Shown here piece after piece: positions 1-16,550 of a DNA stretch of 25,729 bases. Source of the DNA: a virus (Duplodnaviria > Heunggongvirae > Uroviricota > Caudoviricetes); IMG/VR virus record IMGVR_UViG_2585427783_000006, positions 1-25,729 of that record; one strand, 5' to 3'. A program made the position numbers and the translations under genes. The notes under the pieces were generated by a model. The model was not told the origin of the DNA. It saw nothing but the letters and a program-made list of their open reading frames with translations, and did no database searches. Position 1 is the first letter of the stretch. Every line of letters starts with the position of its first letter.

Positions 1-267
1 TTACTCTGCAGGTGAAGTCGGCCACTCAATATCAGGTGCGGTTGATGTATCAACACGGTTCAGCAACACCCGATACTTCTTCCAGGCTTCCAGCAACGAG
101 TTTTCTTCCTCCGTTGCGATCTCCAGATCTACAGCATCCTGAAGTGGCGCAATATGCTCACTGAATTCCTGGATGTAGAACTGTGTGGTGACGGTCTTCC
201 AGCCATTCGGCTCCTGCTGTATCGAAGCATACCAGGCTATTTCAATATCGCTATGCTGCGGCAGCAT
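1..267 (-). CDS. Short tail fibre assembly (Tfa)-like protein or fragment, 88 aa
   Basis: The C-terminal ~50 aa ([36 protein letters not shown]...EWP) align with the C-terminus of the intact Tfa at 2522-3049; the N-terminal 35 aa are unrelated. Stop codon is at 1-3. Confidence 0.5.
20..92. repeat. 73-bp direct repeat copy A (tfa 3' end); partner at 1069-1141
   Basis: Direct comparison: 71 of 73 nt identical to 1069-1141, same orientation. Confidence 0.9.
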
Positions 268-323
268 TTAACCCCTTGTAATTCATCGCCATAATTGATT
301 TAATTCATAAACAAAACTATAAC

Positions 324-992
324 ATGGTGAAACTAATGAAAAAAAACACACATGATGGGGCTAAAATTTACACACCACTTACCCTAAAGCTTTATGACTG
401 GTGGGTTTTGGGAGTATCAAATCGTCTTGCATGGGGATGTCCTACAAAGGAACACCTTCTTCCACACTTTCTGGAACATTTAGGTAACAACCATCTGGAT
501 ATTGGTGTTGGAACTGGGTTTTACCTTACTCACGTACCTGAGAGTAGTCTGATATCTTTAATGGATTTGAACGAAGCTAGCCTGAACGCGGCATCTACAA
601 GGGCTGGGGAATCAAAAATTAAACATAAAATTAGCCATGATGTTTTTGAACCTTATCCCGCGGCGTTACATGGTCAATTTGATTCCATTTCCATGTTTTA
701 CCTTCTTCACTGCCTGCCTGGAAATATATCTACAAAAAGCTGTGTAATACGCAATGCTGCGCAGGCCTTAACTGACGATGGAACTCTATACGGAGCCACA
801 ATTCTTGGCGATGGAGTTGTGCACAATAGCTTCGGTCAAAAACTGATGCGCATTTACAATCAGAAAGGCATCTTTTCAAACACAAAAGATTCCGAAGAAG
901 GCTTAACACATATACTCTCAGAGCATTTCGAGAATGTTAAAACCAAGGTTCAAGGTACTGTAGTAATGTTTTCCGCTTCAGGGAAAAAATAG
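324..992 (+). CDS. Class I SAM-dependent methyltransferase (moron), 222 aa; substrate unknown
   Basis: Glycine-rich motif I (LDIGVGTGFY) typical of Rossmann-fold SAM methyltransferases. The gene is AT-rich relative to flanking tail genes and sits on the opposite strand between tfa remnants. Alternative start ATG at 337. Confidence 0.65.
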   Translation: MVKLMKKNTHDGAKIYTPLTLKLYDWWVLGVSNRLAWGCPTKEHLLPHFLEHLGNNHLDIGVGTGFYLTHVPESSLISLMDLNEASLNAASTRAGESKIKHKISHDVFEPYPAALHGQFDSISMFYLLHCLPGNISTKSCVIRNAAQALTDDGTLYGATILGDGVVHNSFGQKLMRIYNQKGIFSNTKDSEEGLTHILSEHFENVKTKVQGTVVMFSASGKK

Positions 993-1046
993 CATCCAAC
1001 CGCAGCACGTTCTTGCTTAAGACGTGCTGCGGCATAATCCCAATGA

Positions 1047-1373
1047 TTACTCCCTGACAGGGTTCGTAGGCCACTCAATATCAGGTGCAGTTGATGTATC
1101 AACACGGTTCAGCAACACCCGATACTTTTTCCAGGCTTCCACCACCAGCACGACAAGATGCCGCATACAGTGACCCAGTCAGTCCAGTTTCCAGACAACT
1201 AGTGCGTCACCTTTTTGAAGGCGCTTTAAAGCACGTTTTAATCCAGGTCGGCCTGTCCTTGTTCCGCTTAATTTATCTTCAAATATTTGTTCACATCCTG
1301 CACAAACAAGAGCGTTTCGTTGCAGGTCTGTATTCTGGTCATTTGTTGATACCCTTACATAGCCAATCAGCAC
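1047..1373 (-). pseudogene. pin: Pin/Gin/Hin-family serine DNA invertase remnant: premature TGA after codon ~72, then in-frame fusion to a tfa 3' end
   Basis: The N-terminus (GTG start at 1373, LIGYVRVSTNDQNTDLQRNAL...VVWKLD) matches the invertase catalytic domain including the active-site Ser in YVRVS. TGA at 1179-1181 sits where Arg is expected. The frame continues [13 protein letters not shown] and then switches to [23 protein letters not shown] (Tfa C-terminus). The resolvase core and C-terminal HTH are absent. Confidence 0.8.
1069..1141. repeat. 73-bp direct repeat copy B (tfa 3' end fused to the pin remnant)
   Basis: 71 of 73 nt identical to 20-92. Confidence 0.9.
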
Positions 1374-1427
1374 GCTGAATCTCCCGTCCAAAAGCACAAA
1401 TCATGCCATGCAGGCCAGAAACGGCCA

Positions 1428-2521: not shown

Positions 2522-3049
2522 ATGCAGCATTTAAAAAATATTAAGTCTGGAAATCCAAAAACAAAAGAACAATATCAGCTAACAAAGAATTTTGATGTTA
2601 TCTGGTTATATACAGAAGACGGTAAAAACTGGTATGAGGAAGTGAAAAACTTTCAGCCAGACACAATAAAGATTGTTTACGATGCAAATAATATTATTGT
2701 CGCCATCACCAAAGATGCCTCCACGCTTAACCCTGAAGGTTATAGCGTCGTTGAGGTTCCAGATATTACAGCCAACCGCCGCGCTGATGATTCCGGTAAG
2801 TGGATGTTTAGGGACGGAGCTGTGGTTAAACGGATTTATACGGCAGACGAGCAACAACAACAGGCCGAATCACAAAAGGCCGCATTGCTTTCCGAAGCTG
2901 AATCAGTCATCCAACCGCTGGAACGCGCTGTCAGGCTGAATATGGCAACAGACGAGGAACGCACACGACTGGAAGCATGGGAACGCTACAGTGTTCTGGT
3001 CAGCCGTGTGGATACGGCAAATCCTGAATGGCCACAAAAACCAGAGTAA
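2522..3049 (+). CDS. tfa: Tail fibre assembly protein Tfa, 175 aa
   Basis: Directly follows the Sv' cassette; Tfa-like C-terminus ([32 protein letters not shown]). Confidence 0.8.
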
Positions 3050-5037
3050 AAATTAAGGCCCGATGTCCAGACCTGACTATCGCCACCAATATTCAGCCAT
3101 GAGCTATATGCGCGGCAGGCACCAATATTTTTGGTGAAGGTATCTTTTCCTGGAATATCTGCGCCGTTCTGGTTTTTCTGTAATGCGCCAGAAGCCTGAC
3201 TTACCGTTTCCTGTAAACCGAGGTATTCGATAACAGCGGCAACGGTCGATTTCGCAAGAATATCCCGCCCGACTTTTGTCAGGGTTGCCAGGCTGGCGAC
3301 ATCATTCCCCGTAAAATACGGAAACCTGTCTGCCGCAGTAGCAAGCCCGGCCAGCGCCGTCAGGGTGGCATCTTTCGGTTGCTTACCCGCAAGCGCGTTA
3401 GTCATGGTGGTCGCAAAATTCGGGTCGTTTCCCAGCGCCGCCGCCAGCTCGTTCAGCGTATTCAGTGCGTCAGGCGACGAGTCTACAAGTGCGGCAATCG
3501 CGGCCATCACATAAGCCGTGCTTGCGATCTGAGTATTATTAGTCCCTTTTGGCGCAGTTGGCGTTGTTGGCGTTCCGGTCAGCGCAGGACTGTTTAAAGG
3601 CGCTTTCTTGTTCGTTTCATCCATTACCGCCTTAACCGCTTTTGGTGTCGCAGCCAGCGTTTCAGACGGGCTGTTAGTGGCGCTACTGAGCTGAACTATC
3701 CCTTTTCGTGCCGTCGTTGCATCCTGAGCGGTATATTTTGCGTTAGCAAGGTCATATGCTGCCTTTACTGCCTTTGGTGTTGCCGCCAGTGACTCGGAAG
3801 TGCTGTTGGTCGCACTGCTGAGCTGAACCACACCTTTTTTCGTCGTGCTCGCATCTTCCAGAGATACGGCATCAGCAATATCCTCTGCCCGTTTTGCTGC
3901 TGTTTCGGCACGCGTTGCCGCGGATTCAGCAGCAACTTTGCTCTGAGATGCAGCCGTCGCACTGCCTGCCGCCTCTGATGCTTTCGTTGTTGCTGTCGTG
4001 GCACTACCTTTCGCTGCTGACGCTTGTCTGGTCGCCTCATCTTTTGAAGCAGACGCAGATGATGCCGATGACGCCGCTGAACCAGCGGACGATGCGGCTG
4101 CCGCCTTAGAGGAAGCAGCATTGTCTGCTGAAGTCTTTGCATTTGTTTCAGAGGTTTTTGCTGCAGAAGCAGACCTCGCTGCTGCAGTGGCTTGCTTAGT
4201 GGCTTCGCCAGCCTTCGTTGTGGCTGTTGAAGCGGATGATGCGGCGCTTTCTGCCGATTTTCCGGCGGCGGTGGCACTGGCTGAGGCCTGCCCGGCACTT
4301 GTTGACGCGGCACTGGCCGACGATGCAGCCGCTGTTTTTGAACCTGCCGCAGCTGAGGCACTCTGTGCTGCTGCCGTTTCAGAAGACTTAGCGTTTGTCT
4401 CAGACGTCTTTGCCGCCTTCGCGGAATTTCCTGCCGCCGTTGCCGAGGAAGCTGCACTACTGGCACTTGATGATGCATTCGTTTCTGATGATTTCGCTGC
4501 CTCTTTTGAGGCCGCCGCCCCCCGTGCCGAGGTGGCAGCTTCTGACGCCTTCGTGGTCGCTGTGGATGCAGAAGTGGCTGCCGATTTTTGTGATGCTGCG
4601 GCATTCGTTTCTGACGTTTTCGCGGCACTGGCGCTGGTAGCTGCCGCGCTTTTTGATGACTCTGCAGCAGCAGCACTTTTCGCTGCTTCACTGGCCTTTG
4701 TCGATGCCGTTCCTGCGCTGGAAGACGCTGACTGAGCCGACGACGCGGCCTGTCCGGCTGACGTGCTGGCTGCGCGTGCTGAGCCTGCAGCATCAGTCGC
4801 ATGGGTTGCCGCCTCACGGGCTGATGTGCTGGCATCACTGGCTGACTTCTTCGCGGCTGCCGTGTTCTGTGCCACTGCGGACGCGTTACGCGCCACCTCT
4901 TCCACCATCAGTTCAAAACGGCGCAGTGCCTCCGGACGGGCATCATCCTCCGTCATGGCACCGAGAAAATCATTCAGCGTACCGGGTCGGGAATCTTCAT
5001 ACACGGTGATGGTCCCGGCATGTGACGGCGGGAATCC
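2986..5037 (-). pseudogene. stf: Side tail fibre Stf constant region, N-terminally truncated by the J-stf deletion and currently joined to a non-homologous C-terminal stub
   Basis: GFPPSHAGTITVYEDS...long Ala/Ser-rich repeats...AVIEYLGLQETV matches lambda Stf from about residue 60 to the crossover point. After the crossover the frame reads antisense through the tfa 3' end. Confidence 0.8.
3208..3233. other. Inversion crossover site (gix/pix-like), right, inside the stf reading frame
   Basis: TTCCTGTAAACCGAGGTATTCGATAA is the inverted partner of 1428-1453 (16 bp identical in one half-site). It encodes ...IEYLGLQE... at the constant/variable junction of the tail fibre. Confidence 0.75.
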
Positions 5038-7165
5038 GGAACGATACCGACGCCGGATCGCCCTGCTGTCCCCATGCATTTACTGCCCGGACTGTCAGCC
5101 TGTAGTTCCCCAGAGCCAGTTGTGTGAAGCGGTAAGTGGTTTCCGTCGTCCGGGCCGTGCTGACCAGCCGCTCACTGCCGTCATCCGCTGCCACGGTCAG
5201 GCGAAGCATAAAGCTCACCCCCTTCACCACCTTCGGCGTGTCCCAGCGGGCCAGCACCTGGTATTCCCCGCTGTCTGCGGTGACTTCGGCGGTCAGATGC
5301 TGCACTGCTGGCGGCGTGACACCATTCACCGTGCCGCTCTGGTTACCGTCAAAGTGCGCCCCGTTATCCACGATGGCTTCTTTCTCCGGTACATGCTGCA
5401 CTGCAGTGATGGCATACGTACCGTCGTCGTTCTCACGGATACTCACACAGCGGAACAGGCGCTGGCGCAGCGTCGGCAGCTTCAGCCCCCACACGCTGTA
5501 CTCGGCAACGCCGTCAGGAACCCGGCTCACTTTCACCTTCACGCCGTCGGTGATGGACTGGACCTCCACGCTGACCGGATTGCCACTTCCGTCAACCAGG
5601 CTTATCAGCGTGGTGCCGGAGGATGGCAGCGTGATTTCACGGTCGAGCGTCAGCGTCCGGGTCTGGCTGTTCACCGCCAGCACGCGCCCGCCGGTGCTGA
5701 TACCGGCATAGTCATCATCGCAGATTTCAATGACATCGCCCGGTACATGGCGAAGCCCTTCGGCACCCACGCTGAAGTCCACGGTCTGCGTCTCCAGCAG
5801 TTCTGTTTTAATCAGCCACAGCCCGGCGCGGTGTGCCTGCCCCCGGCTGGTACAGCCAAAAGCATCCATCTTCGTGACGTTACGGCCGTAACGGGCAATG
5901 GCCTGCGTGTCCTCCACAAGCTCTGTCGCCGTCTCCCAGCCGTTGTTCGGGTCAATCCAGTTCACCTCAACGGCATTATGGCGGTCCTTCAGGGCGCTGA
6001 AGCTGTAGCGGAACGGCGCGCCATCATCCGGCATCACCACATTACTGCGGTTATAGGTCCACACCTTATCTGATGGTCGGTCCTGCACGAACGTCAGCGT
6101 CTGCCCGTTCCATACCGGCATACAGCGCATCGCCGAGCAGAAATCACTGAGCACATCCCACGCCTTGCGCTGTGTGGTCAGGTACGCATTACAGGTGATG
6201 CGCGGCTCCGTGCCGCCAAAGCCGTCCGGCACTGACTGGTCGCAGTACTGGCCGATAACATACAACGCCCATTTATCCACATCCGCCGCACCAAGACGTT
6301 TCCCCATGCCGTAGCGCGGATGGGTCAGCATATCCCACAGACACCAGGCCATGTTGTTGCTGTATGCCGGTTTAAACGTTCCGTCCCAGATACCGCTGTA
6401 TTGCCGCGTCTGCGGGTTATAATTCGACGGCACCTGCAGAATACGCCCGCGCAGATGATAATTACGGCTCACCTGCTGGCTGCCGAACTGCTCCGAGTCC
6501 ACCTGCACGCCGACCAGTACCGTGTTCGGGTAGCACTGTTTCACATCGATAATTTCGGTGTATGACGACCAGAGCGTTTTGTTCTGCAGCTGGTCTGTGG
6601 TGCTGTCCGGCGTCATCCTGCGCATCCGGATACTGAACGGGCGCGGCGGCAGGTTATCCACCACCACCGAGGCCAGATACTGTGAAGTGGTTTTACCCTT
6701 AATGGTGATGTCTTTTTCCGTCACCCAGCCACCGTTACGCTGGATCTGAACCAGCAGGCGGACTTCCGACGGATTCCTGTCCCCCTTTGAGGTGGTTTCC
6801 ACCAGTGCCTGCACGCCGAAGGTAAAACGCAGTCGGTCAATGTTTGCCGACGTGATGGTCCGGGTGATCGGCGTGTCGTATTTCACTTCCGTACCCAGCA
6901 CCGTCTCGGAGCCGGAGGATTCAAATCCCTCCGGCGGTGTCTGCTCCTGCTCACCGGCCCGGAACACCACCGTGACGCCGGATATATTGGTATTCCCCTC
7001 ACTGTCCAGCACCGGCGTACTGTTCAGCAGCACGCTTTTTAATCCATCCACCGGACCTTCAACCGGCCCTTCGCTGATAGCATCGATCACACTCAGCAGC
7101 TGCGTGGACTTCAGGTTGTCCTTCGCTTCGCGCGGGGTATGCCCCTTACTGCTGCCTTTACCCAT
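4997..7165 (-). pseudogene. J: Host specificity protein J, truncated after about residue 716; C-terminal receptor-binding region deleted
   Basis: MGKGSSKGHTPREAKDNLKSTQLLSVIDAISEGP... is near-identical to lambda J through ...ASVSFRI, then 11 unrelated codons and a stop. Full J is remembered as about 1130 aa. Confidence 0.85.
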
Positions 7166-7225
7166 TCGTCATGCTCCATAAACGATAAAACCGCCCGGAG
7201 GCGGTTTCACATAAAACGTTTTTCA

Positions 7226-7897
7226 TCAGCGACCAATCACCACAACCTGACCACCGTCCCCTTCGTCTGCCGTGCTGATCTCCTGAGAAACCACACGTGA
7301 TCCCACGCGCATTTCACCGTACAGAACGGGCAGAACATTGCCCTAGGCAACCATGTTATCCAGTGAGGAGAAATAGGTGTTTTGTTTGCCGTTATCCGTT
7401 GTCTGTGTACGGGGAGTTCTGGCTTTCGGTGCCAGCATCTGGGCCACACCACCGAGCACCATACTGGCACCGAGAGAAAACAGGATGCCGGTCATACCAC
7501 CGGCCCCAATGGCTGCCCCCCATGCTGCAAGGGTGGCTCCGGCAGTAAAGAATGATCCGGCAATGGCGGCTGCTCCCAGGACAATCTGGAATACGCCACC
7601 TGACTTGGCCCCGGCGACTCTGGGAACAATATGAATCACAGCGCCATCAGGCAGAGTCTCATGTAACTGCGCCGTCAACCCGGACGTGCTGACGTCCCGC
7701 CCGGCAATCCGTACCTGATACCAGCCATCGCTCAGTTTCTGACGAAACGCCGGGAGCTGTGTGGCCAGCGCCCGGATGGCTTCAGCCCCCGTTTTCACAC
7801 GAAGGTCGATGCGGCGGCCAAATCGTTGTAAATCCCCGTAAAGGCAGATGCGTGCCATGCCCGGTGACGCCAGAGGGAGTGTGTGCGTCGCTGCCAT
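7226..7897 (-). pseudogene. I: Tail assembly protein I with an in-frame amber (TAG) codon at 7343-7345
   Basis: MAATHTLPLASPGMARICLYGDL...SSLDNMVA then TAG where lambda has Gln. The same frame continues GNVLPVLYGEMRVGSRVVSQEISTADEGDGGQVVVIGR to a stop at 7226-7228. Confidence 0.8.
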
Positions 7898-8538
7898 TTT
7901 TCGGTATACCTCTCTCGTTTGCTCAGTTGTTCAGGAATATGGTGCAGCAGCTCGCCGTCACCACAGTAAATGGCGGCATGATTCGGCACCGATGAACCAA
8001 AACAGCACAGCAGCACATCGCCCGGCTGCGCCGCTGACAACGGCACCTGATACAGCCCTGTGGCCTCCAGATTATCCAGATAGAGATTCTGACCGTTACG
8101 CCACCAGTCATCCTCACGATGAAAATCCGGCATCTCAATCCCCGCCAGATGGTAAGCATCCCGGAACAGCGTGTAACAGTCCGTCACCCCGTGCTCAAAG
8201 CGCCGCCCGGTGAGATGCGGCACACAGCGGAATTTATGAATCGCCCCCCGGCAGACCAGCCACCACGGCAAATCACTCTGCACCTGCAACCGCCGGTCAG
8301 CCTCACTCAGCCAGGGCAGACCACCGGGGTGACTGTGGACCAGCGCCACAATCTCACCCTGCATTTCTGCCTGCAGCCAGTCCTCCGGAGCCATCCGGAA
8401 ATAATCCTCCGGCTCACCGGAAATATTCACGCCGGGAAAATATCTTTCCCCCTCCGGCGTTCTCACCACGAAGCCGCACGACTCCGCTGGCGCACATCGC
8501 CGGGCGTGCGCCAGGATCGCTGATTCTGTCTCTGTCAT
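7795..8538 (-). CDS. K: Tail assembly protein K (JAMM/MPN plus NlpC/P60-like)
   Basis: MTETESAILAHARRCAPAESCGFVV...HSHPGG... Start chosen at the ATG at 8538; the longer ORF listed in the track is an upstream extension overlapping L. Confidence 0.8.
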   Translation of the reverse strand: MTETESAILAHARRCAPAESCGFVVRTPEGERYFPGVNISGEPEDYFRMAPEDWLQAEMQGEIVALVHSHPGGLPWLSEADRRLQVQSDLPWWLVCRGAIHKFRCVPHLTGRRFEHGVTDCYTLFRDAYHLAGIEMPDFHREDDWWRNGQNLYLDNLEATGLYQVPLSAAQPGDVLLCCFGSSVPNHAAIYCGDGELLHHIPEQLSKRERYTEKWQRRTHSLWRHRAWHASAFTGIYNDLAAASTFV

Positions 8539-8542
8539 GGGA

Positions 8543-9241
8543 TTACTGCGAAAGTTTGTTAATGGAAAGGAAGCCGCCAAAGTTGCCGACGTTATTGCGA
8601 AACTTACAGCCACTCAGGCATTTGCTGCATTTATCCTTCGTGATATCGGACGTCGGCTGGTCATATTCATCCGCGACAGCCGGACCGCTATAACCGCACT
8701 CGTCACCGCGATAGGTCCAGGTGCAGGTGTTGGCCAGCATGATACGTCCCGGAAAAACAGCGCCATCCGTTTCCGTCGGCGTGGACAGTACAAAAGAGGC
8801 ACTGACTGCGCTCAGTTCGCTGCACTGCTCGATGCGCCAGCGGCTGATCACCTCCTGCTCCGGATCGGCGTCTCTGTTTCCGTTGACGAAGTTCACCGCA
8901 TCCAGAAAACGGGCGTAAACCTTACGCCGGACCACCGTTCCGCCGACCAGACTCTGCAGATCTTCCGCCATCCCGGTGACCATACCGTACAGGTTAGAAA
9001 CCGTCAGCGTGGGGCGCGTACTGGTGCCTTTGCCATTCAGTTCAAAACCACTCCCCTGAATGGGATACGGCTGATACTGTCGCCCCTGCCAGGTGACCGG
9101 CTCACCTTTTTCGTTCTGCTCATTACAGAAAAAATAACGTTCTCCACCGACCTCTGTCAGGTCGATTTCCCAGAGCACCACGCTGGCCGACTGCTCCGCA
9201 CGGGTGCATTCATTCAGTGTTTCCTGCCGGATATCCTGCAT
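8543..9241 (-). CDS. L: Tail tip protein L, 232 aa
   Basis: MQDIRQETLNECTRAEQSASVVLWEIDLTEVGGERYFFCNEQNEKGEPVTWQGRQYQPYPIQ... lambda L-like, in lambda synteny. Confidence 0.85.
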   Translation of the reverse strand: MQDIRQETLNECTRAEQSASVVLWEIDLTEVGGERYFFCNEQNEKGEPVTWQGRQYQPYPIQGSGFELNGKGTSTRPTLTVSNLYGMVTGMAEDLQSLVGGTVVRRKVYARFLDAVNFVNGNRDADPEQEVISRWRIEQCSELSAVSASFVLSTPTETDGAVFPGRIMLANTCTWTYRGDECGYSGPAVADEYDQPTSDITKDKCSKCLSGCKFRNNVGNFGGFLSINKLSQ

Positions 9242-9570
9242 CAGTTCACCACCTGTTCAAACTCTGCGCTGAACTCAACACGCAGCATACTGACCCGCGA
9301 CGACCATTTTGCGCAGGTCACCTTTATCTGCCGCCACTCATAAGGCGGCGTCCACAGAAAGGCTTTCCAGCCCCCGTGCTCAGCCAGAAACGACTCCAGC
9401 GCCGTGGCCTCCTCACGGGAGACAGACAGCGTCACGCTGTACGTTTTCAGGTCAGCGTTCAGCCCGGCAGGCGCTCGCTGAGAATAGCCATCACCAAAGC
9501 GCACCTTTCTTACGGAAGGGGCCGAAGCCACATCCATACCGGGTTTCGCTTTCCAGCGGAAGGTCTTCAT
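9241..9570 (-). CDS. M: Tail protein M, 109 aa
   Basis: MKTFRWKAKPGMDVASAPSVRKVRFGDGYSQRAPAGLNADLKTYSVTL... lambda M-like, in lambda synteny. Confidence 0.85.
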   Translation of the reverse strand: MKTFRWKAKPGMDVASAPSVRKVRFGDGYSQRAPAGLNADLKTYSVTLSVSREEATALESFLAEHGGWKAFLWTPPYEWRQIKVTCAKWSSRVSMLRVEFSAEFEQVVN

Positions 9571-12041
9571 CGTCCACCTCCGGAGAACAGACCACCATCG
9601 CGCATCTGTGCCTGAATTTCATCACGGGCCCCCTTACGGGCCATGTCATACACTGCCTTCATCATCTGTGGACCTGGCAGACCATTCGTACCGTCGTTCT
9701 GAATCACCACGTGATTGTTCTGATTAAAATTAATGCCTTCCGCCCGCCGCATCTGCGCCGGACTTCCGGCACCGCCCACATAACCACCTTCCGCATAGCC
9801 GCGCATCAGCCGGTAGAGATTTCCCACGCCAATCCGGCTGGTTGCCTCCTTCGTGAAGACAAATTCACCACGGTGAACAATCCCCGCTGGCTCATATTTG
9901 CCGCCAGTTCCCGTAAATCCCCCGGTCGCAAAATGGAATTTTGCCGCAGCAGCCTGAATGGCTGTACCGCCTGACACTGATGCGCCACCACCGGCAGCAC
10001 CGCCAATGGCGCTGCCGATACTCCCGACAATTCCCACCATTGCCTGCTTAAGCAGAATTTCTGTCATCATGGACAGCACGGAACGGGTGAAGCTGCGCCA
10101 GTTCTGCTCACTGCCGGTCAGCATCGCCGCCATATTCTGTGCAATACCATCAAAGGTCTGCGTGGCAGCACTTTTAACCTGCGACATACTGTCCGTGGCG
10201 CTCTCTTTCCACTCACTCCAGCCTGACCTGAGGCCTGCCATCCAGCTCCCGCGAAGCTGGTCTTCAGCTGCCCAGGTCTTTTTCTGCTCTGACATGACGT
10301 TATTCAGCGCCAGAGGATTATCGCCATACTGTTCCTTCAGGCGCTGTTCCGTGGCTTCCCTCGCTGCCTGCCGGTCAGTCAGCCCCCGGTTTTTCGCATC
10401 AATGGCGGCCCGTTTTGCCCGTTGCTGCTGTGCGAATTTATCCGCCTGCTGTGCCAGCGCGTTCAGGTGTTCCTGATAGGTGACCTTGTCGCCAAGTGCA
10501 GCCAGCTGGCGTTTGTACTCCAGCGTCTCATCTTTATGCGCCAGCAGGGATTTCTCCTGTGCAGACAGCTGGCGACGTTGCGCCGCCTCCTCCAGTACCG
10601 CGAACTGACTCTCCGCCTTCCACAAATCCCGGCGCTGCTGGCTGATTTTTTCATTCGCTCCACTATGCTGCTCAAGCATTTTTAGTTCAGCTTGTAACGC
10701 AAGAAGAGCTGCATGTGCTCGATCTTCCTGACGCTCTCCCGCAGCGGACTGCTTCGGCTTTTTCAGCGTCGCTTCATAGTCCTTTTTCGCCGCCGCCATC
10801 AGCGTGTTGTAATCTGCCTGCAGGATTTTCCCGTCTTTCAGTGCCTTGTTCAGTTCTTCCTGACGAGCGGTATATTTCTCCAGCGGCGTCTGCAGGCGTT
10901 CGTAAGCCTTCTGCGCCTCTTCGGTATATTTCAGCCGTGATGCCTCAGACTCGGCCCAGTCCTTTGCTGCCATCTCTCTGGCCTTTTCAAGATCGGCCTG
11001 CAACGTGGCGGCTGAAAGCCCAAGTTGCGCATTCGCTCTGTCCTCCCATGCTCCCCGGAGATTGGCAAGAAATGCTGAGGTTTTACCGCGCCGGTGGCTC
11101 CGGCTCTGATACCACTGCCATTTTTTGTCCGCCTCATCAAAAGCCTTTTCTGCTTTCTCCAGCATTCCCTGGGCAGTGTCCGGGCGACCAATATCCAGCA
11201 CCGCATCCCACATGGATTTGAATGCCCGTGCTGTCCTGTCTGCCCAGGTCTCCAGCGTGCCCATGTTCTCTTTCAGGCGGAGGGTCTGGTCATCAAACCC
11301 TTTCGTTGCGGCCTCGTTCGCCGCCTGCAATGCCCCGGCTTCATCTCCGGAACGCTGCAACTGAGCAACATACGCAATCTGCTCCGCCGTCACGTTATGG
11401 AACTGACGTGCCATCGCTGTCAGTCCCGACGTCGGGTCTGTGGTCAGCTTCCCGAAGGCTTCAGCGACCTTGTCCACCTCCACGCCGGATGCAGAGGAGA
11501 AACGCGCCACACTCTGGCTGATCGCCTCAAACTGCTCACCACCACGCACACCGGCATTCACCAGCGCCGTCAGTGACTCGCTGGTCTGGTTAAACGTCAG
11601 CCCTGCCGCCTGCCCGGCTCTGGACAGGACCAGCATACGATCTGCCGTCAGTCCCGCCTGATTGCCGGAAAGGACCAGCGTTTTGTTGAAATCGGACAGG
11701 GTTGAGTTGCCCTGATACCAGGCATACGCCAGCGCACCGGTCGCCACCGCCAGCGAGGTGGCCCCCACCATCGGCAGGGTGATCGCACCGGCAAGCCCCC
11801 TGAACATGGGGATCATCCCGCCGAAGGAGTCCTTCACCTGACCACCCTGTTGCAGCAGGATCAGCCACGGACTTTGCCCGCCTGCAAGCTGCGTGGCCAC
11901 GTCAGTGAACTGTGCAGGCAGCATACGCATGGCGGCTTTATACTGTCCGACGGAAATGGCCATTGCGGCGGCACCGGGCACCGCCGTTCTGCTGATACGG
12001 CTGAGGTTTTCAACGGCCTGCTCAAGACCTTTTATGGCCAT
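9567..12041 (-). CDS. H: Tape measure protein H carrying the N-terminal ~29 codons of tail gene Z (in-frame Z'-'H deletion fusion), 824 aa
   Basis: The N-terminus MAIKGLEQAVENLSRISRTAVPGAAAMAI matches the remembered lambda Z start; from SVGQYKAAMRMLPAQFTDVATQLAGG onward it matches lambda H. The gene begins 12 nt after the FII stop, where Z should sit. Confidence 0.75.
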   Translation of the reverse strand: MAIKGLEQAVENLSRISRTAVPGAAAMAISVGQYKAAMRMLPAQFTDVATQLAGGQSPWLILLQQGGQVKDSFGGMIPMFRGLAGAITLPMVGATSLAVATGALAYAWYQGNSTLSDFNKTLVLSGNQAGLTADRMLVLSRAGQAAGLTFNQTSESLTALVNAGVRGGEQFEAISQSVARFSSASGVEVDKVAEAFGKLTTDPTSGLTAMARQFHNVTAEQIAYVAQLQRSGDEAGALQAANEAATKGFDDQTLRLKENMGTLETWADRTARAFKSMWDAVLDIGRPDTAQGMLEKAEKAFDEADKKWQWYQSRSHRRGKTSAFLANLRGAWEDRANAQLGLSAATLQADLEKAREMAAKDWAESEASRLKYTEEAQKAYERLQTPLEKYTARQEELNKALKDGKILQADYNTLMAAAKKDYEATLKKPKQSAAGERQEDRAHAALLALQAELKMLEQHSGANEKISQQRRDLWKAESQFAVLEEAAQRRQLSAQEKSLLAHKDETLEYKRQLAALGDKVTYQEHLNALAQQADKFAQQQRAKRAAIDAKNRGLTDRQAAREATEQRLKEQYGDNPLALNNVMSEQKKTWAAEDQLRGSWMAGLRSGWSEWKESATDSMSQVKSAATQTFDGIAQNMAAMLTGSEQNWRSFTRSVLSMMTEILLKQAMVGIVGSIGSAIGGAAGGGASVSGGTAIQAAAAKFHFATGGFTGTGGKYEPAGIVHRGEFVFTKEATSRIGVGNLYRLMRGYAEGGYVGGAGSPAQMRRAEGINFNQNNHVVIQNDGTNGLPGPQMMKAVYDMARKGARDEIQAQMRDGGLFSGGGR

Positions 12042-12052
12042 ACATCCCCCTT

Positions 12053-12406
12053 TCAGCGGCGACGGTTAACGGCAGGCGGTACGCCCCGCCCAAGCCAGAG
12101 ATGACAGCTTCCGCCATCATCCGGCGAAATCCGGTCTATCCAGAAGTTTTCCTCACCGATGGTCAGCGTGTCGCCGCGCCGCAGCTGCCGCACATCATCA
12201 GTCCGGACAAACAGGGACGGGCTGGAGCCTTCAACGCGCACGCCCTGTCCGGCATAGCTGATATTTTCAGGGTCATCAAAAACACCACGTATCACAGCAC
12301 CGGACTGCTCACCGGATGTCATGGTGGCTGACGTTCCCATGTACCCGCGTATCGTTTCATCGGCGCAGGCAATGGCAGCATCGAACAGGTTATCGAAATC
12401 AGCCAC
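12053..12406 (-). CDS. FII: Head-tail joining protein FII, 117 aa
   Basis: MADFDNLFDAAIACADETIRGYMGTSATMTSGEQSGAVIRGVFDDPENISYAGQGVRVEG... lambda FII-like. Confidence 0.8.
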   Translation of the reverse strand: MADFDNLFDAAIACADETIRGYMGTSATMTSGEQSGAVIRGVFDDPENISYAGQGVRVEGSSPSLFVRTDDVRQLRRGDTLTIGEENFWIDRISPDDGGSCHLWLGRGVPPAVNRRR

Positions 12407-12417
12407 AGCGCCTCCCG

Positions 12418-12813
12418 TTATTGCATTCTGGCCAGGCCACGTTCTGTCATTTCGGCTGCCACACCGGCAGAGACACGAAACGCCGTTCCCGGCAGCACAA
12501 ATGCCACAGGTTCATCCCGCGTGGCGTGAAGTGCATCGGTATGCAGCGTCACCAGTGCCACAACCGTGACCAGAGCAGCCGTATCAGTCACGGTATCCGT
12601 CTGTGCTGATACCACCTCATTTTCATGTCCGGTCAGCGAATTTTCCGGGCTGACAGACGTGTCCTGACCGGCTGCGTCATCCGTGTCATCAAGCTCCTCT
12701 TCCAGCTCTGCCACACGGAGCGCCAGTTCTTCTTTCGTCCCCGTCAGGCTGACATCACGGTTCAGTTGCTCACCCAGCGACCGGAGACGGGCAATCAGTT
12801 CATCTTTCGTCAT
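12418..12813 (-). CDS. FI: DNA packaging protein FI, 131 aa
   Basis: MTKDELIARLRSLGEQLNRDVSLTGTKEELALRVAELEEELDD... lambda FI-like. Start at the ATG at 12813, preceded by a GGAGGAG Shine-Dalgarno sequence. Confidence 0.8.
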   Translation of the reverse strand: MTKDELIARLRSLGEQLNRDVSLTGTKEELALRVAELEEELDDTDDAAGQDTSVSPENSLTGHENEVVSAQTDTVTDTAALVTVVALVTLHTDALHATRDEPVAFVLPGTAFRVSAGVAAEMTERGLARMQ

Positions 12814-12854
12814 GGACTCCTCCACAGAGAGACAATGGCCCCGAAGGGCCATGA

Positions 12855-13880
12855 TTACGCCAGTTGAACGGACACGAACTCATCAGGATCAGCCAGCAGC
12901 ATCAGCGGTGCTGACTGAATCATGGTGAACTCTCGCGCCGGATCGCCGGATGTCTTCCAGTTTTTCGGATAACGGGGAGACGCATTAATACCCTCACTCA
13001 ATGCATCCGCATCCTGAATACAGCCATAGGTGCGCAGACCGCGTGCATGAGTGTTCCCCAGCACCATCGTGTTGTCCGGCAGGAAGTTCTTTTTGACGCC
13101 GTTTTCCACGTACTGTCCGGAATACACGACGATGGCCACATCGCCATACATTCCCTTATAAGACACCGCTTTGCCCAGGTCTTTTACCGCTGTCTCCAGT
13201 TCGGAATGAGAGCCGCGACGGGTATCCAGCTTCTCCCTGACGGCTTTGAAGGAACGGAACAGCGCCCAGCCTTTCGGGTCAAACACGATGATATTCACCA
13301 CGCCGCTGGCGTTCAGCGCGTAGGCTTCGATATCGTCGGTCGGGTCATACGTGGACTTGTCACGCTTGCTCCACTCCGTGCCGCCGGACTGCGTGATGTT
13401 GTTCGCCGCACTGCGGCCCATATCCACCTCGACCGGATCGAAGGCTTCACCGGTCATGGTGTATTTGCCCTTGAGCACGGCAGAAACGGCCTGCATCTCT
13501 TCGACCTGAGCAATGGCCTGCTCTTCGTCACGCATGTTCTGCATGATGATGCGACGGCGGCGGTAAGCCGGGTCCGCCAGATTCTGTGGATCTTCATCCG
13601 GCAGGCGACGCAGGGTCATCTGCGGATTCACCTCATGCTTCGGCTTGACATATCCCGGCGTAAATTCGGAGGTGGAGCCGCCACGGGAGCGGATAACCTC
13701 ACCGGAAACAATCGGCGAAACGTACAGCGCCATATTTACCAATCCCGGAATTTGTGAGAGATAGACTTTCTCCGTGGTGAAGGGATAGCTTTCACGGAAA
13801 AAGAGACGCAGAAACAGCGGATCAAACTTAAATTTCTGCTCATTTGCCGCCAGCAGCTGGGCGGTTGTGTACATCGACAT
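12855..13880 (-). CDS. E: Major capsid protein E, 341 aa
   Basis: MSMYTTAQLLAANEQKFKFDPLFLRLFFRESYPFTTEKVYLSQIPGLVNMALYVSPIVSGEVIRSRGGSTSEFTPGYVKPKHEV... near-identical to remembered lambda E. Start at the ATG at 13880. Confidence 0.9.
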   Translation of the reverse strand: MSMYTTAQLLAANEQKFKFDPLFLRLFFRESYPFTTEKVYLSQIPGLVNMALYVSPIVSGEVIRSRGGSTSEFTPGYVKPKHEVNPQMTLRRLPDEDPQNLADPAYRRRRIIMQNMRDEEQAIAQVEEMQAVSAVLKGKYTMTGEAFDPVEVDMGRSAANNITQSGGTEWSKRDKSTYDPTDDIEAYALNASGVVNIIVFDPKGWALFRSFKAVREKLDTRRGSHSELETAVKDLGKAVSYKGMYGDVAIVVYSGQYVENGVKKNFLPDNTMVLGNTHARGLRTYGCIQDADALSEGINASPRYPKNWKTSGDPAREFTMIQSAPLMLLADPDEFVSVQLA

Positions 13881-14248
13881 AAAAAAATCCCGTAAAAAAA
13901 GCCGCACACCAGCGATGCAATATCCTGCTGGTGGATGAACGACAGAATCTTCACCGACACCACCGATACCAGCACCGCACACAGCGCATCTGCCGATGTA
14001 CCGTCATACCCTGTTTTTGATGCAATCCAGGCTGACAGCACACGCGCTCCCAGCACGCCGACAATAAACGACACCAGAAAATGCGCCACCACGCGCCAGA
14101 CTGAAAGTGACTGCGGCATCGTTGCCACAAATAACGCCCCGGCGAACGCGCCAAACACAATCCCGAAATCCATCCCGGTAAACAGCCCGAATACCGTCGC
14201 GCCACCCAGCGCCGCAGCCGTGCCGGAACCGGATAAGGGTTCAGACAT
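13736..14248 (-). CDS. Predicted 3-TM membrane protein (holin-like?); its 3' end reads into the E start region and is probably disrupted
   Basis: MSEPLSGSGTAAALGGATVFGLFTGMDFGIVFGAFAGALFVA... has three hydrophobic helices in the first ~125 aa. The last ~45 codons are low-complexity (CRCTQPPSCWRQ...) and overlap the E start by about 145 nt. Confidence 0.45.
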   Translation of the reverse strand: MSEPLSGSGTAAALGGATVFGLFTGMDFGIVFGAFAGALFVATMPQSLSVWRVVAHFLVSFIVGVLGARVLSAWIASKTGYDGTSADALCAVLVSVVSVKILSFIHQQDIASLVCGFFYGIFLCRCTQPPSCWRQMSRNLSLIRCFCVSFSVKAIPSPRRKSISHKFRDW

Positions 14249-14340
14249 ACTTCCTCCTGAAAATAAAAAAAGGGCCACCAGCGACCCGTAAAAAAACACC
14301 CCGTCAAAGGCACCCGCAGATGCCTTTTGTGTGATGTTAT

Positions 14341-14493
14341 TCAGATTTTCGCAGTAAAGGCCGGAGCACGATCAGCGCCATCGCCACCAGCACACCATCT
14401 GCCAGCACTGACATCAGTCGTCCGGTGAAATCCACCATCACTACCAGAAACAACAGGATGACAGCCAGCACAAGGCGCGCACTTTTCACAGGT
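14341..14493 (-). CDS. Possible small hydrophobic protein (~50 aa, GTG start overlapping the upstream stop)
   Basis: My translation gives VKSARLVLAVILLFLVVMVDFTGRLMSVLADGVLVAMALIVLRPLLRKSE; the GTG overlaps the TGA of the 74-aa ORF (cTGTGa). The ORF track lists a different frame of this region. Confidence 0.3.
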   Translation of the reverse strand, partial: TCEKCAPCAGCHPVVSGSDGGFHRTTDVSAGRWCAGGDGADRAPAFTAKI

Positions 14494-14710
14494 ACTGCTC
14501 CAGCGGCAACTGCAGCGCCTGCGCAATTTTCTTCAGTTGCGCTTCTTCTTCCTGACCGATACCGTCCTGGTCAGCGATATCCAGACACAGACACAGCACA
14601 TTCACAGTATCATCAGTATCTGCAACATCAGTCAGCTGACGAAGGGCTTCAGCATTAGCAGAACGCGGTGGCGCTTCATAACGGGCGCGGATATGAAAAA
14701 GGCCCGCCAA
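14486..14710 (-). CDS. Hypothetical acidic protein, 74 aa
   Basis: ORF starts 23 nt downstream of a tRNA 3' end; no recognised family. Confidence 0.3.
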   Translation of the reverse strand: MAGLFHIRARYEAPPRSANAEALRQLTDVADTDDTVNVLCLCLDIADQDGIGQEEEAQLKKIAQALQLPLEQYL

Positions 14711-14732
14711 AGCGAGCCTGGAAAAATAAGCG

Positions 14733-14809
14733 TGGCGCGTTGTACTGGATTCGAACCAGTGACCGATTGCTTAGAAGGCAATTGCTCTGTCCGGCTGAGC
14801 TAACAACGC
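14733..14809 (-). tRNA. argN: tRNA-Arg (anticodon UCU; argN/argU-like)
   Basis: Folded by hand: 7-bp acceptor stem GCGTTGT/ACAACGC, D-arm GCTC/GAGC, anticodon loop CTTCTAA, T-loop GGTTCGAATCC, 3' GCCA. Confidence 0.85.
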
Positions 14810-14822
14810 ATAATGCAGATAA

Positions 14823-14899
14823 TGGATTGCCATCGGGGACCCGAGCCCCACACAGCCAGTTTCGAAAGCTGGCACTCTCTGTCGATGAGCTAATGGCGG
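14823..14899 (-). tRNA. Degenerate tRNA-like element, possibly argO-like tRNA-Arg (UCG)
   Basis: Sits in the 97-bp gap between two good tRNAs. It has an anticodon-type stem-loop (CCAGC-TTTCGAA-ACTGG) and a GC-rich T-like stem, but two mismatches at the acceptor end and a non-canonical T-loop (CTCGGGT). Confidence 0.3.
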
Positions 14900-14906
14900 T
14901 ATGTGA

Positions 14907-14982
14907 TGGTGGCCCTTGCTGGATTTGAACCAGCGACCTGGCGATTATGAGTCGCTCGCTCTCACCACTGAGCTAAAGGGCC
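14907..14982 (-). tRNA. ileZ: tRNA with CAU anticodon, ileX/ileZ-like (tRNA-Ile2 reading AUA; could alternatively be tRNA-Met)
   Basis: Sequence closely resembles remembered E. coli ileX. Acceptor stem GGCCCTT/AAGGGCC, anticodon loop CTCATAA, T-loop GGTTCAAATCC, CCA encoded. Confidence 0.8.
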
Positions 14983-15031
14983 GGGAGCAGAATAATAATG
15001 GTGCGTAATTAATTCTGCAATCTCATCCGTT

Positions 15032-16081
15032 TCAAACGATTAAATCCTGAACTTCCCTGACTGTCTGTTCAAAACGTCCTGTCTCCAGCTCAACACCAAT
15101 CGCACAACGCCCCAGTGCCATCGCCGCTTTTACCGTTGAACCTGAACCCATAAAAAAATCTGCAACCAGGTCTCCCGGACGACTGCTCGCGTTGATTATC
15201 TGCTGCAGCATTTCTGCCGGTTTTTCGCACGGATGTTTTCCTGGATAGTACTGCACCGGTTTATGCGTCCAGACATCGGTGTACGGAACCTGCGCCGTCA
15301 CACCGAAATACCGCCGCAAATTTTTATATTCACTCAGCAGTTCCGTGTACTGCCGGTTCAGCTCACTGTATGTGCTGACCAGCTGGTGGTGTGGCTTTTC
15401 CAGTTCCCCGCGCTGATGTTTTTCTGCCGCAACACGCGCAAACAACGCCTGCAATTTGTTGTAATCACCCTCGTTCGGTAACTGCCACTGACTGGTACCA
15501 AACCAGTGCGAAGCCATGTTTTTCTTTCCGGTGGCTTCCGCTATCTGTTTTGACGTTATTCCCAGTGATTTACGCGCATCACGAAAGTAAGAAATCAGCG
15601 GGGCCATGACGTGCTGTTTTAGCTCGCGCCCCTGTGCCACATAGCCATCATCTTTCGGGCGATACGGTCCCTGATAATGTTCTGCAAACAGAATGCGCTC
15701 TGTTGCCGGAAAATACGCCCGCAGACTTTCCTTATTGCACCCGTTCCAGCGTCCGGACGGCTTCGCCCAGATAATGTGGTTCAGCACATTAAAGCGCTCA
15801 CGCATCATGATTTCGGTGTCAGATGCCAGGCGATGACCACAGAACAGGTAAAGACTTCCGGTAGGCTTCAGTACCCGCCAGAACTGCGCCAGACACTGGT
15901 CCAGCCATTTCAGGTAATCATCGTCGCCCTCCCACTGGTTATCCCAGCCCTCGGGCTTCACTTTAAAGTATGGCGGGTCTGTGACTATCAGATCGACAGA
16001 ATTTTCCGGTAAGGTCTGGATAAACTCCAGGCAATCAGCGTTGATTAACTCACAACTGGATATTTTTACAGTATTAATCAT
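15032..16081 (-). CDS. Orphan DNA methyltransferase (N6-adenine or N4-cytosine, beta-class), 349 aa
   Basis: DPPY motif IV near the N-terminus (LIVTDPPYF) and motif I (FFMGSGST) near the C-terminus. No adjacent restriction endonuclease gene. Confidence 0.8.
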   Translation of the reverse strand: MINTVKISSCELINADCLEFIQTLPENSVDLIVTDPPYFKVKPEGWDNQWEGDDDYLKWLDQCLAQFWRVLKPTGSLYLFCGHRLASDTEIMMRERFNVLNHIIWAKPSGRWNGCNKESLRAYFPATERILFAEHYQGPYRPKDDGYVAQGRELKQHVMAPLISYFRDARKSLGITSKQIAEATGKKNMASHWFGTSQWQLPNEGDYNKLQALFARVAAEKHQRGELEKPHHQLVSTYSELNRQYTELLSEYKNLRRYFGVTAQVPYTDVWTHKPVQYYPGKHPCEKPAEMLQQIINASSRPGDLVADFFMGSGSTVKAAMALGRCAIGVELETGRFEQTVREVQDLIV

Positions 16082-16231
16082 AGATCAATAAGCACTTCTC
16101 TGATAGGCTCATACCGCTTTTGCGCAAAGCAGATGGGCCTGAGGTTTGCTTGTGACCCCAACGCATGAGCAGATGGCTGGCAGGTGCCGCTAACACCCCC
16201 CAGCCGCCCATTACCACAAATTAAAAAGCCT

Positions 16232-16411
16232 TCACTGCGGAAGGCGTCTGTAACAACCGAACTGATAATCTGCCAGACCCGCCATAACAAGCTGAGTCAG
16301 TATTAACTGGCAGCGTTCGCGTGAAAGGTAAGTATTCTGCGCAATTTCCCCGACGGTCGCCGGTTCGGTGATGCTTAATTCATTAAACACCACTCTGGCG
16401 GTTTCGGTCAT
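16232..16411 (-). CDS. Hypothetical small protein, first gene after tR'; start uncertain (ORF extends to 16552)
   Basis: A CAGGA Shine-Dalgarno sequence precedes the ATG at 16411 (MTETARVVFNELSITEPATVGEIAQNTYLSRERCQLILTQL...). Confidence 0.35.
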   Translation of the reverse strand: MTETARVVFNELSITEPATVGEIAQNTYLSRERCQLILTQLVMAGLADYQFGCYRRLPQ

Positions 16412-16550
16412 ATCCTGCTGTTTTAGCATGCCTTTTTCCCTTTCCCAGTTAACGTGACATACCAATACCTCTTGTCGAAAAAGCCAGCAAGCTGAAAGAC
16501 CGGCATTCGCAACCACCAGCGCATTTAACGTCCTGTACCGCTTTTCGGGC

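Follow-up and report, generated by a model that had tools for sequence, protein, structure and literature searches.

A virus-derived stretch of DNA of 25,729 nucleotides (IMG/VR record IMGVR_UViG_2585427783_000006, analyzed here as a whole and called the window) carries near one end a methyltransferase gene between two nearly identical blocks of sequence in the same orientation. This arrangement raises the question of whether the gene is a cassette that was captured between the two blocks and that can leave by recombination between them. Our answer, to which we give a probability of about 80%, is that the right end of a defective lambdoid prophage beside potB carries two tfa remnants, different from each other and both non-functional, whose 3' ends are the repeats, that these bracket a ybcY-type cargo gene of cellular origin, and that the module circulates among lambdoid phages by recombination in the tfa block. 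The repeat-flanked arrangement is ordinary phage mosaicism, a scar of lambdoid gene shuffling. The features on which this answer is based are collected in Table 1.

Table 1. Features of the locus in window coordinates, with the basis on which each was assigned (a dot marks features without a strand).
Feature	Position	Strand	Basis or remark
Outer tfa' relic, 88-aa ORF, C-terminal part of a tail-fiber assembly protein only	1..267	-	Caudo_TAP, phrog_2341
Outer direct-repeat copy, conserved tfa 3' block	17..95	.	75/79 identical to 1066-1144
Divergent spacer between tfa' and the methyltransferase gene	268..323	.	One sigma-70-like site at 268-295, plus strand
Class I SAM-dependent methyltransferase, intact, 222 aa, K-12 ybcY ortholog, cargo (moron) gene	324..992	+	Pfam Methyltransf_12/23/25/11
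GC-rich hairpin where the methyltransferase and tfa'' converge	1000..1032	.	Folding energy; possible bidirectional terminator
Inner tfa'' stump, last ~32 codons and stop of lambda-type tfa	1047..1141	-	Translation; full-length tfa match in PhiR26_1
Inner direct-repeat copy	1066..1144	.	75/79 identical to 17-95
Illegitimate in-frame junction tfa''/pin', TTCC microhomology (GGAA on the coding strand)	1137..1141	.	Three-way nucleotide alignment
Truncated serine invertase gene, pin/gin type	1142..1397	-	Pfam Resolvase N-terminal domain, positions 2-73 of 145
Crossover site (inverted repeat) next to pin', invertible tail-fiber segment	1428..1460	.	33-nt arm, 94% complementary to 3201-3233
Partner inverted repeat, in the constant part of the stf gene	3201..3233	.	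94% complementary to 1428-1460

The repeat itself is real. The first-pass annotation had reported 71 of 73 identical positions between 20-92 and 1069-1141 in direct orientation, and we reproduced this count and extended the match without gaps to 79 bp (95% identical), within which the runs of perfect identity are 2, 20, 38, 13, and 2 bp long. When the 73-mer was searched against the whole window with up to 3 mismatches allowed, these two sites were the only ones found, and the number expected by chance was 0.00 (100 dinucleotide-preserving shuffles), which rules out a chance origin. The further proposal that the repeats are tfa 3' ends was borne out, as each copy makes up the final ~26 codons of a minus-strand Caudo_TAP (tfa) reading frame. 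The two copies part ways in their last 5-6 codons, reading ...EWPTSPAE* in the outer and ...EWPTNPVRE* in the inner copy. Across the loci that we compared, the tfa repeats span 75-196 bp at 87-96% identity and lie within coding sequence. In those loci that have a full inner tfa, the outer and inner repeats are merely 87-90% identical over 75-196 bp and their tails differ, which indicates two alleles and no duplication. A recent tandem duplication is ruled out, since the tails differ and the 5' part of the outer copy has no homology to lambda-type tfa.

The outer copy matches profile positions 75-131 only of the Pfam Caudo_TAP model (the last 57 of 131), and its SNP pattern is chimeric, with approximately positions 1-163 resembling the resident lambda-type tfa and positions 164-267 being of the tfaX type. 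Because the 3' ~163 bp are of the functional lambda type, the outer copy is 95-97% identical to the inner one, while about 100 bp of tfaX-specific sequence have no counterpart in the inner tfa. One could suppose that the outer ORF is a functional short Tfa-like gene that forms a divergent pair with the methyltransferase, and that the repeat is there because two working genes are conserved at the protein level. The ORF is indeed intact in the window, it has a Shine-Dalgarno-like motif (AAGGGG) 4 nt upstream of the ATG, it matches phrog_2341, an 88-residue phage family, from end to end, and in K-12 the tfaX side has a listed constitutive promoter (PMC3946193). However, the ORF is interrupted in 6 of the 12 loci compared, its coverage of Caudo_TAP is partial, and the inner copy is certainly not a coding gene. 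The lesions are varied: in H10407 codon 4 is a stop, L012 and 2G7b have a frameshift, and DLP12 and Kati have stops; the ORF is also truncated in Ayreon/AR434, its C-terminus is altered in PhiR26_1, and PGAP annotates relatives as a partial pseudogene. We consider two working genes very improbable, and a functional mini-Tfa was rejected on the decay of the ORF in relatives. Neither the outer nor the inner tfa copy has a full-length Caudo_TAP domain in a conserved intact ORF. Judged by its sequence, the outer tfa is a chimera and a relic in decay.

The inner tfa'' aligns throughout with the 3' end of tfa from PhiR26_1, where this gene is full length. The copy in the window has been cut to 105 bp, and the PGAP annotation of relatives has a partial tfa pseudogene at the equivalent position. 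The inner tfa is full length in L005, L013, and L014, and the window does not share this long inner tfa of the DLP12-type module. We mapped the junction at which the stump ends by aligning three nucleotide sequences, the window, the complete invertase gene of phage 503458, and the complete tfa of PhiR26_1; positions 1183-1500 are 95.6% identical to the invertase region of phage 503458. The pin' ORF runs from 1397 to 1179, encodes 72 aa, and is terminated by an in-frame TGA (1179-1181). Beyond this TGA about 12 further pin codons are recognizable as far as the junction, across which the translation reads ...|AWKKY. The inner tfa'' sits behind the stop codon in this pin' fusion. Among 5,426 complete E. 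coli genomes, 536 have the pin'::tfa'' junction with identical structure; it is spread over several integration sites, and the modules downstream of it vary.

Next to pin' lies an invertible tail-fiber segment. Matches to sibling strains break exactly at the inverted repeat beside pin', and the segment has opposite orientations in E8 and E54, so that inverted crossover sites and both natural orientations are present, but an intact invertase is not. One Sv/tfa set has been deleted from the segment in the window. That a serine invertase gene fragment adjoins the inner repeat is the point that favors reading the repeats as target-site-like duplications or as recognition sites of a recombinase such as Pin that inserted the methyltransferase. 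Against this, the repeats are coding 3' ends of tfa with the variable lengths and identities given above, unlike short exact target duplications; the crossover sites of Pin are the separate 33-nt inverted repeats, which have no similarity to the tfa block; and the pin gene is truncated and contains a stop. We also found no transposase or integrase ORF within positions 1-1150, and no terminal inverted repeats. We regard this explanation as next to impossible, and a site-specific or transposon origin is ruled out by the nature of the repeats and by the lack of a transposase or integrase in 1-1150.

The gene between the repeats had been described as an AT-rich methyltransferase on the strand opposite to tfa, and this description holds, with a GC content of 40.7% as compared to 51.4% for the window. 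The protein belongs to phrog_2132, for which PHROG lists the function as unknown, no NCBIfam equivalog was found for it, and UbiG and juvenile-hormone acid methyltransferase, the closest proteins of solved structure, match it at E-values of about 1e-3 only. A DNA methyltransferase of the restriction-modification or anti-restriction type is unsupported, as the protein matches only generic methyltransferase domains of the small-molecule type. It is intact and nearly identical in 9 of the 10 loci compared, a near-invariance that contrasts with the repeated lesions of the outer ORF. In Salmonella and Enterobacter, homologs that share 56-65% identity occur on the chromosome as stand-alone genes, and such chromosomal ybcY homologs in other Enterobacterales fit a captured cargo gene of cellular origin. 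Our literature search on ybcY/tfaX returned mentions in promoter catalogues and deletion lists only and no functional study.

Signals for independent expression of the gene are suggestive. The sigma-70-like site in the divergent spacer matches at 9 of 12 positions, which is no better than chance for the region, while PMC3946193 lists for the K-12 ybcY/tfaX spacer an H-NS site as well as constitutive RpoD promoters in divergent orientation. At the other end of the gene, the 66 nt from 985 to 1050, which include the hairpin, have a folding energy of -23.9 kcal/mol on the plus strand (z -5.6) and -28.5 kcal/mol on the minus strand (z -4.3). A scan for consensus terminators did not call the hairpin, which has no adjacent T-run; it is a possible bidirectional terminator.

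The combination of methyltransferase and flanking tfa sequences is found far beyond this prophage. Positions 21-1141 are 97.1% identical to K-12 DLP12 over 1,121 bp, the match to PhiR26_1 is 98.2% identical over 1,099 bp, and from 21 or 43 to 1141 the window is colinear at 97-98% with tfaX-ybcY-tfaD of DLP12 and with PhiR26_1 and 2G7b, both viable lambdoid phages that carry tfa-ybcY-tfa'. The methyltransferase segment was found in 3,934 of the 5,426 complete E. coli genomes (~73%), at many integration sites; all of our genome counts depend on BLAST coverage thresholds. The phage collection has no record with the pin'::tfa''-ybcY arrangement (best coverage 75%). As far as genome comparison tells, tfa-ybcY-tfa' is an old, very widespread unit and no local novelty.

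Comparison with related prophages, which the first-pass annotation had proposed as a check, revealed a presence/absence polymorphism at the potB prophage end. The site is filled in 823 genomes, counted as those with the flank, the outer tfa', and the ybcY spacer, and empty in 47 genomes, counted with a 481-nt query. The empty alleles, which include E2348/69, O104:H4 2009EL-2071, and TUM9757, read J-lom-stf-tfa(full)-231 bp-potB and have no methyltransferase. Filled alleles have a full tfa in L014 and pin'::tfa'' in 409 genomes. In one genome that we examined, EHEC strain 2014C-3051, the same end has a 150-bp tfa relic with T3SS effector genes after it. Resident-type sequence gives way to tfaX-type sequence at approximately window positions 25-58 in L012 and L014 and at approximately 150-165 in the window and in H10407; crossovers were mapped at the nucleotide level in about a dozen loci. 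The differing switch points could instead be due to later gene conversion. The 47 empty alleles could be ancestral or could be products of recombination between inner and outer copies, two origins that look the same for an outer copy of the window type.

Since the boundaries lie inside the tfa 3' block at varied positions, homologous recombination in tfa appears to join and separate the module and the phage arms. The idea that the segment was inserted or captured by recombination between tfa copies is in this respect supported; it is not supported for capture between this prophage's own tfa copies, because the unit is old and widespread and its two tfa ends are different alleles.

The prediction that the repeats allow excision was not borne out in the genomes. 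A synthetic query for the predicted product, consisting of the potB flank, a hybrid repeat, and pin', had no match at a coverage of at least 80% in any of the 5,426 genomes, as against 409 with the full arrangement. Methyltransferase-less relatives that share the pin'::tfa'' junction, AR434 and phage Ayreon, have loss endpoints at 294/957, outside the repeats, and have kept the 3' end of the methyltransferase gene. These observations count against a cassette that was captured between the prophage's own tfa copies, is excised by recombination between the 73-79-bp repeats, and can re-insert into any tfa. In favor of such a cassette, the repeats are 95-97% identical and their longest perfect run of 38 bp exceeds the roughly 25 bp usually quoted as the minimum for RecA-dependent recombination in E. 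coli, the empty alleles at the potB site are bounded by the tfa block, and the inner tail (NPVRE plus hairpin) always accompanies ybcY whereas the outer tail follows the downstream arm, as in a Campbell-type insertion. However, single crossovers between whole phage genomes give the same outcome without a circular cassette, the tfaX-specific part of the outer copy is missing from the inner tfa, and the module sits at many integration sites in nearly three quarters of the genomes. We consider a cassette of this kind quite unlikely. In principle the repeat pair could delete a 1,049-bp unit, yet nothing points to a detectable rate.

Returning to a module that circulates among lambdoid phages, we infer from the homologies, junctions, polymorphism, and relic decay seen in these genomes an order and direction of events, with homologous exchange of the RecA or Red type. 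The circulating module consists, in order, of a tfa 3' block, the NPVRE tail, the hairpin, ybcY, the promoter spacer, the 5' part of tfaX, and a second tfa 3' block. The tfaX outer remnant may be the relic of an ancient illegitimate join that set a tfa-ybcY segment before a truncated tfa; the one observation that points to this original event is that the 5' part of tfaX has no homology to the inner tfa. Later moves between phage arms would have taken place by ordinary homologous recombination in the conserved tfa 3' block. A donor tfaX relic probably recombined, in this lineage, with the resident full-length tfa of the potB phage, giving the chimeric outer copy. In what would have been a separate event, the once full-length inner tfa was reduced to its present length, and a Mu/P2-type invertible tail-fiber cassette was presumably joined to it in frame by an illegitimate event at 4 bp of microhomology inside pin. 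In laboratory work, lambda takes up DNA from two prophages, Rac and Qin, at about 2e-6, through homologous recombination in regions of stf-tfa identity; Red-beta drives this exchange on short, diverged homology (PMC3945230).

A more far-reaching reading, which we offer tentatively and regard as unlikely, is that the two tfa 3' blocks serve as built-in homology arms. This would make ybcY a portable moron that a single unequal crossover can move to a new phage together with either the left (tail-fiber) or the right (att/int) arm. Such a reading is compatible with the varied crossover points at potB and with the several partners that the pin'::tfa'' stump has. If it were true, every lambda-type tfa would be a target, the block being common to all, and the otherwise useless outer relic would persist by hitch-hiking as a homology arm.

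The case documents the shuffling of cargo at the right end of lambdoid prophages through the conserved tfa end and has little wider weight, but it illustrates that several unrelated joins can leave behind what looks, in one sequence taken alone, like a repeat-flanked cassette. A widespread dead pin::tfa fusion, present in 536 genomes and split by annotation pipelines into three small features, also came to light. The role of the ybcY-type methyltransferase for the lysogen is a question of some weight, given that the gene is strongly conserved and present in so many complete E. coli genomes.

Several known systems resemble parts of this locus. The Gin/Cin/Pin segments (Mu G, P1 C, e14 P) share with the window the 33-nt inverted repeats, the Sv/tfa sets, and the adjacent serine invertase gene, and Mu-like and P2-like phages have invertase genes 93-96% identical to that of the window. 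They differ in that the invertase here is a dead 72-codon stump fused to tfa'' and the direct tfa repeats lie outside the inversion system. In EHEC lambdoid prophages, cargo loci downstream of tail-fiber genes have been termed exchangeable effector loci, a term for which our literature search returned no usable match. The effector genes of 2014C-3051 lie after a tfa relic at the same position of the same potB prophage end, although the cargo is different and the join is at window position ~150, outside the shared 79-bp block.

In lambdoid phages, an extra cargo gene is called a moron (Hendrix/Juhala). The methyltransferase is like a moron in several ways: its GC content deviates, it lies on the opposite strand between the conserved genes of the late region and the attachment site, close relatives lack it at the same position (47 vs 823), its protein sequence is conserved, and there are homologs in cellular genomes. 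A moron would also have a promoter and a terminator of its own for expression from the repressed prophage; for this gene both are only suggested.

The closest relative is tfaD-ybcY-tfaX of K-12 DLP12, which has the same gene order and orientation, the tfa 3' end, the convergent methyltransferase, the divergent spacer, and the truncated outer tfa. In K-12, however, ybcY is frameshifted and tfaD keeps 438 bp, whereas the methyltransferase of the window is intact and its shortened inner tfa is fused to a pin fragment. The outer arm is appY-ompT in K-12, while the window has a relic with a resident-type 3' end and the potB attR. Finally, the relaxed homologous recombination that forms mosaics of temperate phages and defective prophages (De Paepe et al. 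2014, PMC3945230) likewise has its exchange points in short, diverged stf-tfa homology. Exchange was measured in that system and is deduced from comparisons in ours, where the homology block occurs twice, in direct orientation, around a cargo gene, and where crossovers in or out of register may decide whether the cargo joins the left or the right arm.

The 73-bp direct repeats reported in the first-pass annotation are real: 20-92 and 1069-1141 agree at 71/73 positions, the ungapped extension (17-95/1066-1144) is 75/79 identical with a longest perfect run of 38 bp, and no comparable match was present in 100 dinucleotide-preserving shuffles. They had correctly been taken for tfa sequence, each copy covering the penultimate ~26 codons of the Caudo_TAP (tfa) frame on the minus strand, with frames ending ...EWPTSPAE* in the outer copy (tfa') and ...EWPTNPVRE* in the inner copy (tfa''). 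The AT-rich methyltransferase gene lies between them on the opposite strand, also as annotated. A 45-aa minus-strand ORF (937-1074) overlapping its 3' end and the adjacent hairpin, labelled 'hypothetical protein' or 'nucleocapsid protein' in RefSeq (WP_001309429.1, WP_071592174.1), is in all likelihood an artefact of gene prediction.

Features of the repeat region and the rest of the prophage, in window coordinates
Feature	Position	Strand	Remarks
Remainder of outer tfa ORF	up to 267	minus	between repeat copies
Spacer			56 bp, between outer tfa ORF and methyltransferase gene
Predicted class I SAM methyltransferase	324-992	plus	intact, 222 aa; 40.7% GC (window 51.4%)
Strong hairpin	1000-1032		between methyltransferase gene and inner copy
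In-frame TGA in pin'	1179-1181	minus	
Pin/Gin-type serine invertase N-terminus (pin')	from 1397	minus	Resolvase profile positions 2-73
Inverted repeats of invertible tail-fibre segment	1428-1460/3201-3233		33 nt each, upstream of pin'
N6/N4 DNA methylase	15032-16081		between tape-measure and Q
DUF968/HNH protein	17578-18705		between tape-measure and Q
DUF6731 protein	19679-20593		between tape-measure and Q
Q antiterminator gene	21094-21630		

At DNA level pin', the truncated invertase gene, shows 95.6% identity with phage 503458 over the latter's invertase region. About 12 more recognisable pin codons follow its in-frame TGA before an in-frame switch, at a TTCC/GGAA microhomology (1137-1140), to the final 32 codons of a lambda-type tfa (the translation, 20 residues before the junction and 29 after it, is not shown here). 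Since the switch occurs at this microhomology behind the stop codon, the inner repeat is the sole remainder of a tfa gene, joined illegitimately to a dead invertase gene. The junction is found in 536/5,426 complete E. coli genomes and the complete pin'::tfa''-ybcY-tfa' arrangement (ybcY is the K-12 methyltransferase ortholog) in 409, so that about 130 have different downstream DNA; these and our other genome counts vary with the BLAST coverage thresholds. In strain 13C1065T (att-lambda site), homology stops at 1060, and the tfa stump has a third type of tail (...GPIIE*) followed by a diguanylate cyclase gene.

Window positions 21-1141 are colinear with tfaX - ybcY - tfaD of the K-12 prophage DLP12 (97% identity), and the module is 98% identical in the viable lambdoid phages PhiR26_1 and 2G7b, where the order is J-lom-stf-tfa(full)-ybcY(opposite strand)-tfa'(fragment)-cargo-int. 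The methyltransferase segment occurs in 3,934 of the 5,426 genomes, commonly in multiple copies per genome. Where the inner tfa is still full-length, the outer and inner copies match over 75-196 bp at only 87-90% identity, and about 100 bp at the 5' end of the outer relic (beginning with 35 residues not shown here) find no equivalent in the inner tfa; for both reasons the copies are different tfa alleles rather than a duplication. A prophage at the ompW/trp site of NMBU-W12E19 has an outer relic with an NPVRE-type tail and a second copy of the hairpin found downstream of that tail; its direct repeat around ybcY is 196 bp at 90% identity (3001-3216 vs 4071-4265 of that locus).

The outer ORF is broken in H10407, L012 (another potB-end locus), DLP12, Kati, 2G7b and Ayreon/AR434, and its C-terminus is altered in PhiR26_1. 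Because it is repeatedly interrupted while the methyltransferase protein stays intact and almost invariant in 9/10 loci compared, these alignments mark the outer tfa as a relic and the methyltransferase as selected cargo. Salmonella and Enterobacter carry homologs with 56-65% identity as stand-alone chromosomal genes, which fits a captured cellular gene; these genes (at 5001-5663 in each locus) lie beside cybB/hrpA-like genes in Salmonella and a liv-type ABC transporter in Enterobacter, outside any prophage context. The methyltransferase matches phrog_2132, a family without assigned function, has no NCBIfam equivalog, and is weakly similar to UbiG and juvenile-hormone acid methyltransferases, with nothing stronger.

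As judged from the near-identical genomes of ETEC E8 (99.97% identity to the window) and H10407, the prophage adjoins potB, with 231 bp between position 1 and the potB end. Comparison of relatives for presence or absence of the segment, as the first-pass annotation proposed, revealed a polymorphism: 823 genomes have the 231-bp flank, outer tfa' and ybcY spacer, and 47 have J-lom-stf-tfa(full, ...SPAE*)-231 bp-potB with no intervening DNA, a difference that may reflect either gain or loss. The empty genomes include EPEC E2348/69, O104:H4 2009EL-2071, porcine ETEC strains and TUM9757. At the same end, strain Z1323PEC0013 has full tfa-ybcY-tfa', and in EHEC 2014C-3051 the T3SS effector genes espM2, espW and nleG-family genes (4232-8381 of its locus) take the place of ybcY behind a tfa relic of 150 bp; one spot therefore holds different cargo by pathotype.

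Site-by-site alignment of about a dozen loci places the change from resident (E2348/69-like) to tfaX-type sequence in the outer copy at ~163 in the window and H10407, and already at ~25-58 in the filled loci L012 and L014. These differing switch points suggest that the module was joined to the potB phage arm by homologous recombination within the tfa block, at more than one point. The proposed capture by recombination between tfa copies stands to that extent; that the copies are different alleles and the arrangement old and widespread speaks against the rest. Excision across the repeats is physically possible, yet none of the 5,426 genomes matched a constructed deletion-product sequence (potB flank + hybrid repeat + pin'). 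AR434 (prfC site) and phage Ayreon have lost the methyltransferase ORF through a deletion whose endpoints (294/957) fall outside the repeats and which spares the final 36 bp of the gene.

The locus comprises two distinct tfa remnants, one illegitimate pin::tfa join and a conserved cargo gene; the tfa block delimits its polymorphism, and the crossovers fall at varying points. An ancient illegitimate join would have produced tfa-ybcY-tfaX, whose conserved tfa 3' block would then have served as a crossover site for exchange among lambdoid (pro)phages; lambda x Rac/Qin exchange across stf-tfa has been measured at about 2e-6 and is Red-beta dependent (PMC3945230). Because the block flanks ybcY on both sides, in-register or out-of-register crossovers could let the cargo travel with either arm or stay behind. 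The unusually high copy identity in the window probably reflects an outer 3' part derived from a functional resident tfa and an inner copy of which just the 79 best-conserved bp are left. To a more novel reading, in which the twin tfa blocks would work as homology arms and turn ybcY into a portable moron, we give a probability of roughly one in five.

Elsewhere in the prophage, the segment 1428-3233 is flipped between the sibling ETEC isolates E8 and E54, with flanks 99.9% identical. Given that both orientations occur next to a pin gene reduced to a 72-codon stump, an invertase from another part of the genome must act, or must once have acted, in trans. Compared with E8, the window is missing 1,350 bp in one clean deletion (3049-3201 vs 9065-10414 of the E8 locus). 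The loss comprises a tfa gene and the greater part of an alternative fibre-tip exon, so that in ORF 2986-5079 the constant stf part continues through the inverted repeat and ends in a short tail foreign to its context. A deletion has also taken away the J C-terminus, lom and the stf N-terminus, all of which E8 and H10407 retain: the J ORF (4997-7165; 722 aa, only N-terminal domains) overlaps the stf ORF start at 4997-5079, and the N-terminal domain of stf lacks its first ~64 positions. The prophage is grossly defective (9567-21630); its tape-measure ORF starts with a GpZ-like N-terminus, and the ORFs scanned between the tape-measure and Q antiterminator genes included none for head, terminase or lysis functions.

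Our literature search found no treatment of the pin'::tfa'' fusion or the potB-end empty/filled polymorphism; as far as we found, both the widespread fusion and the polymorphism are undescribed, yet new cases of known processes. The invertible segment is of the same kind as Mu G, P1 C and e14 P, and the inversion system beside the repeats belongs, in degenerate form, to the Gin/Cin/Pin class. The window arrangement is a derived form of K-12 tfaD-ybcY-tfaX, and the repeat-flanked methyltransferase fits both the concept of a moron and the model in which phage mosaicism arises by relaxed homologous recombination.
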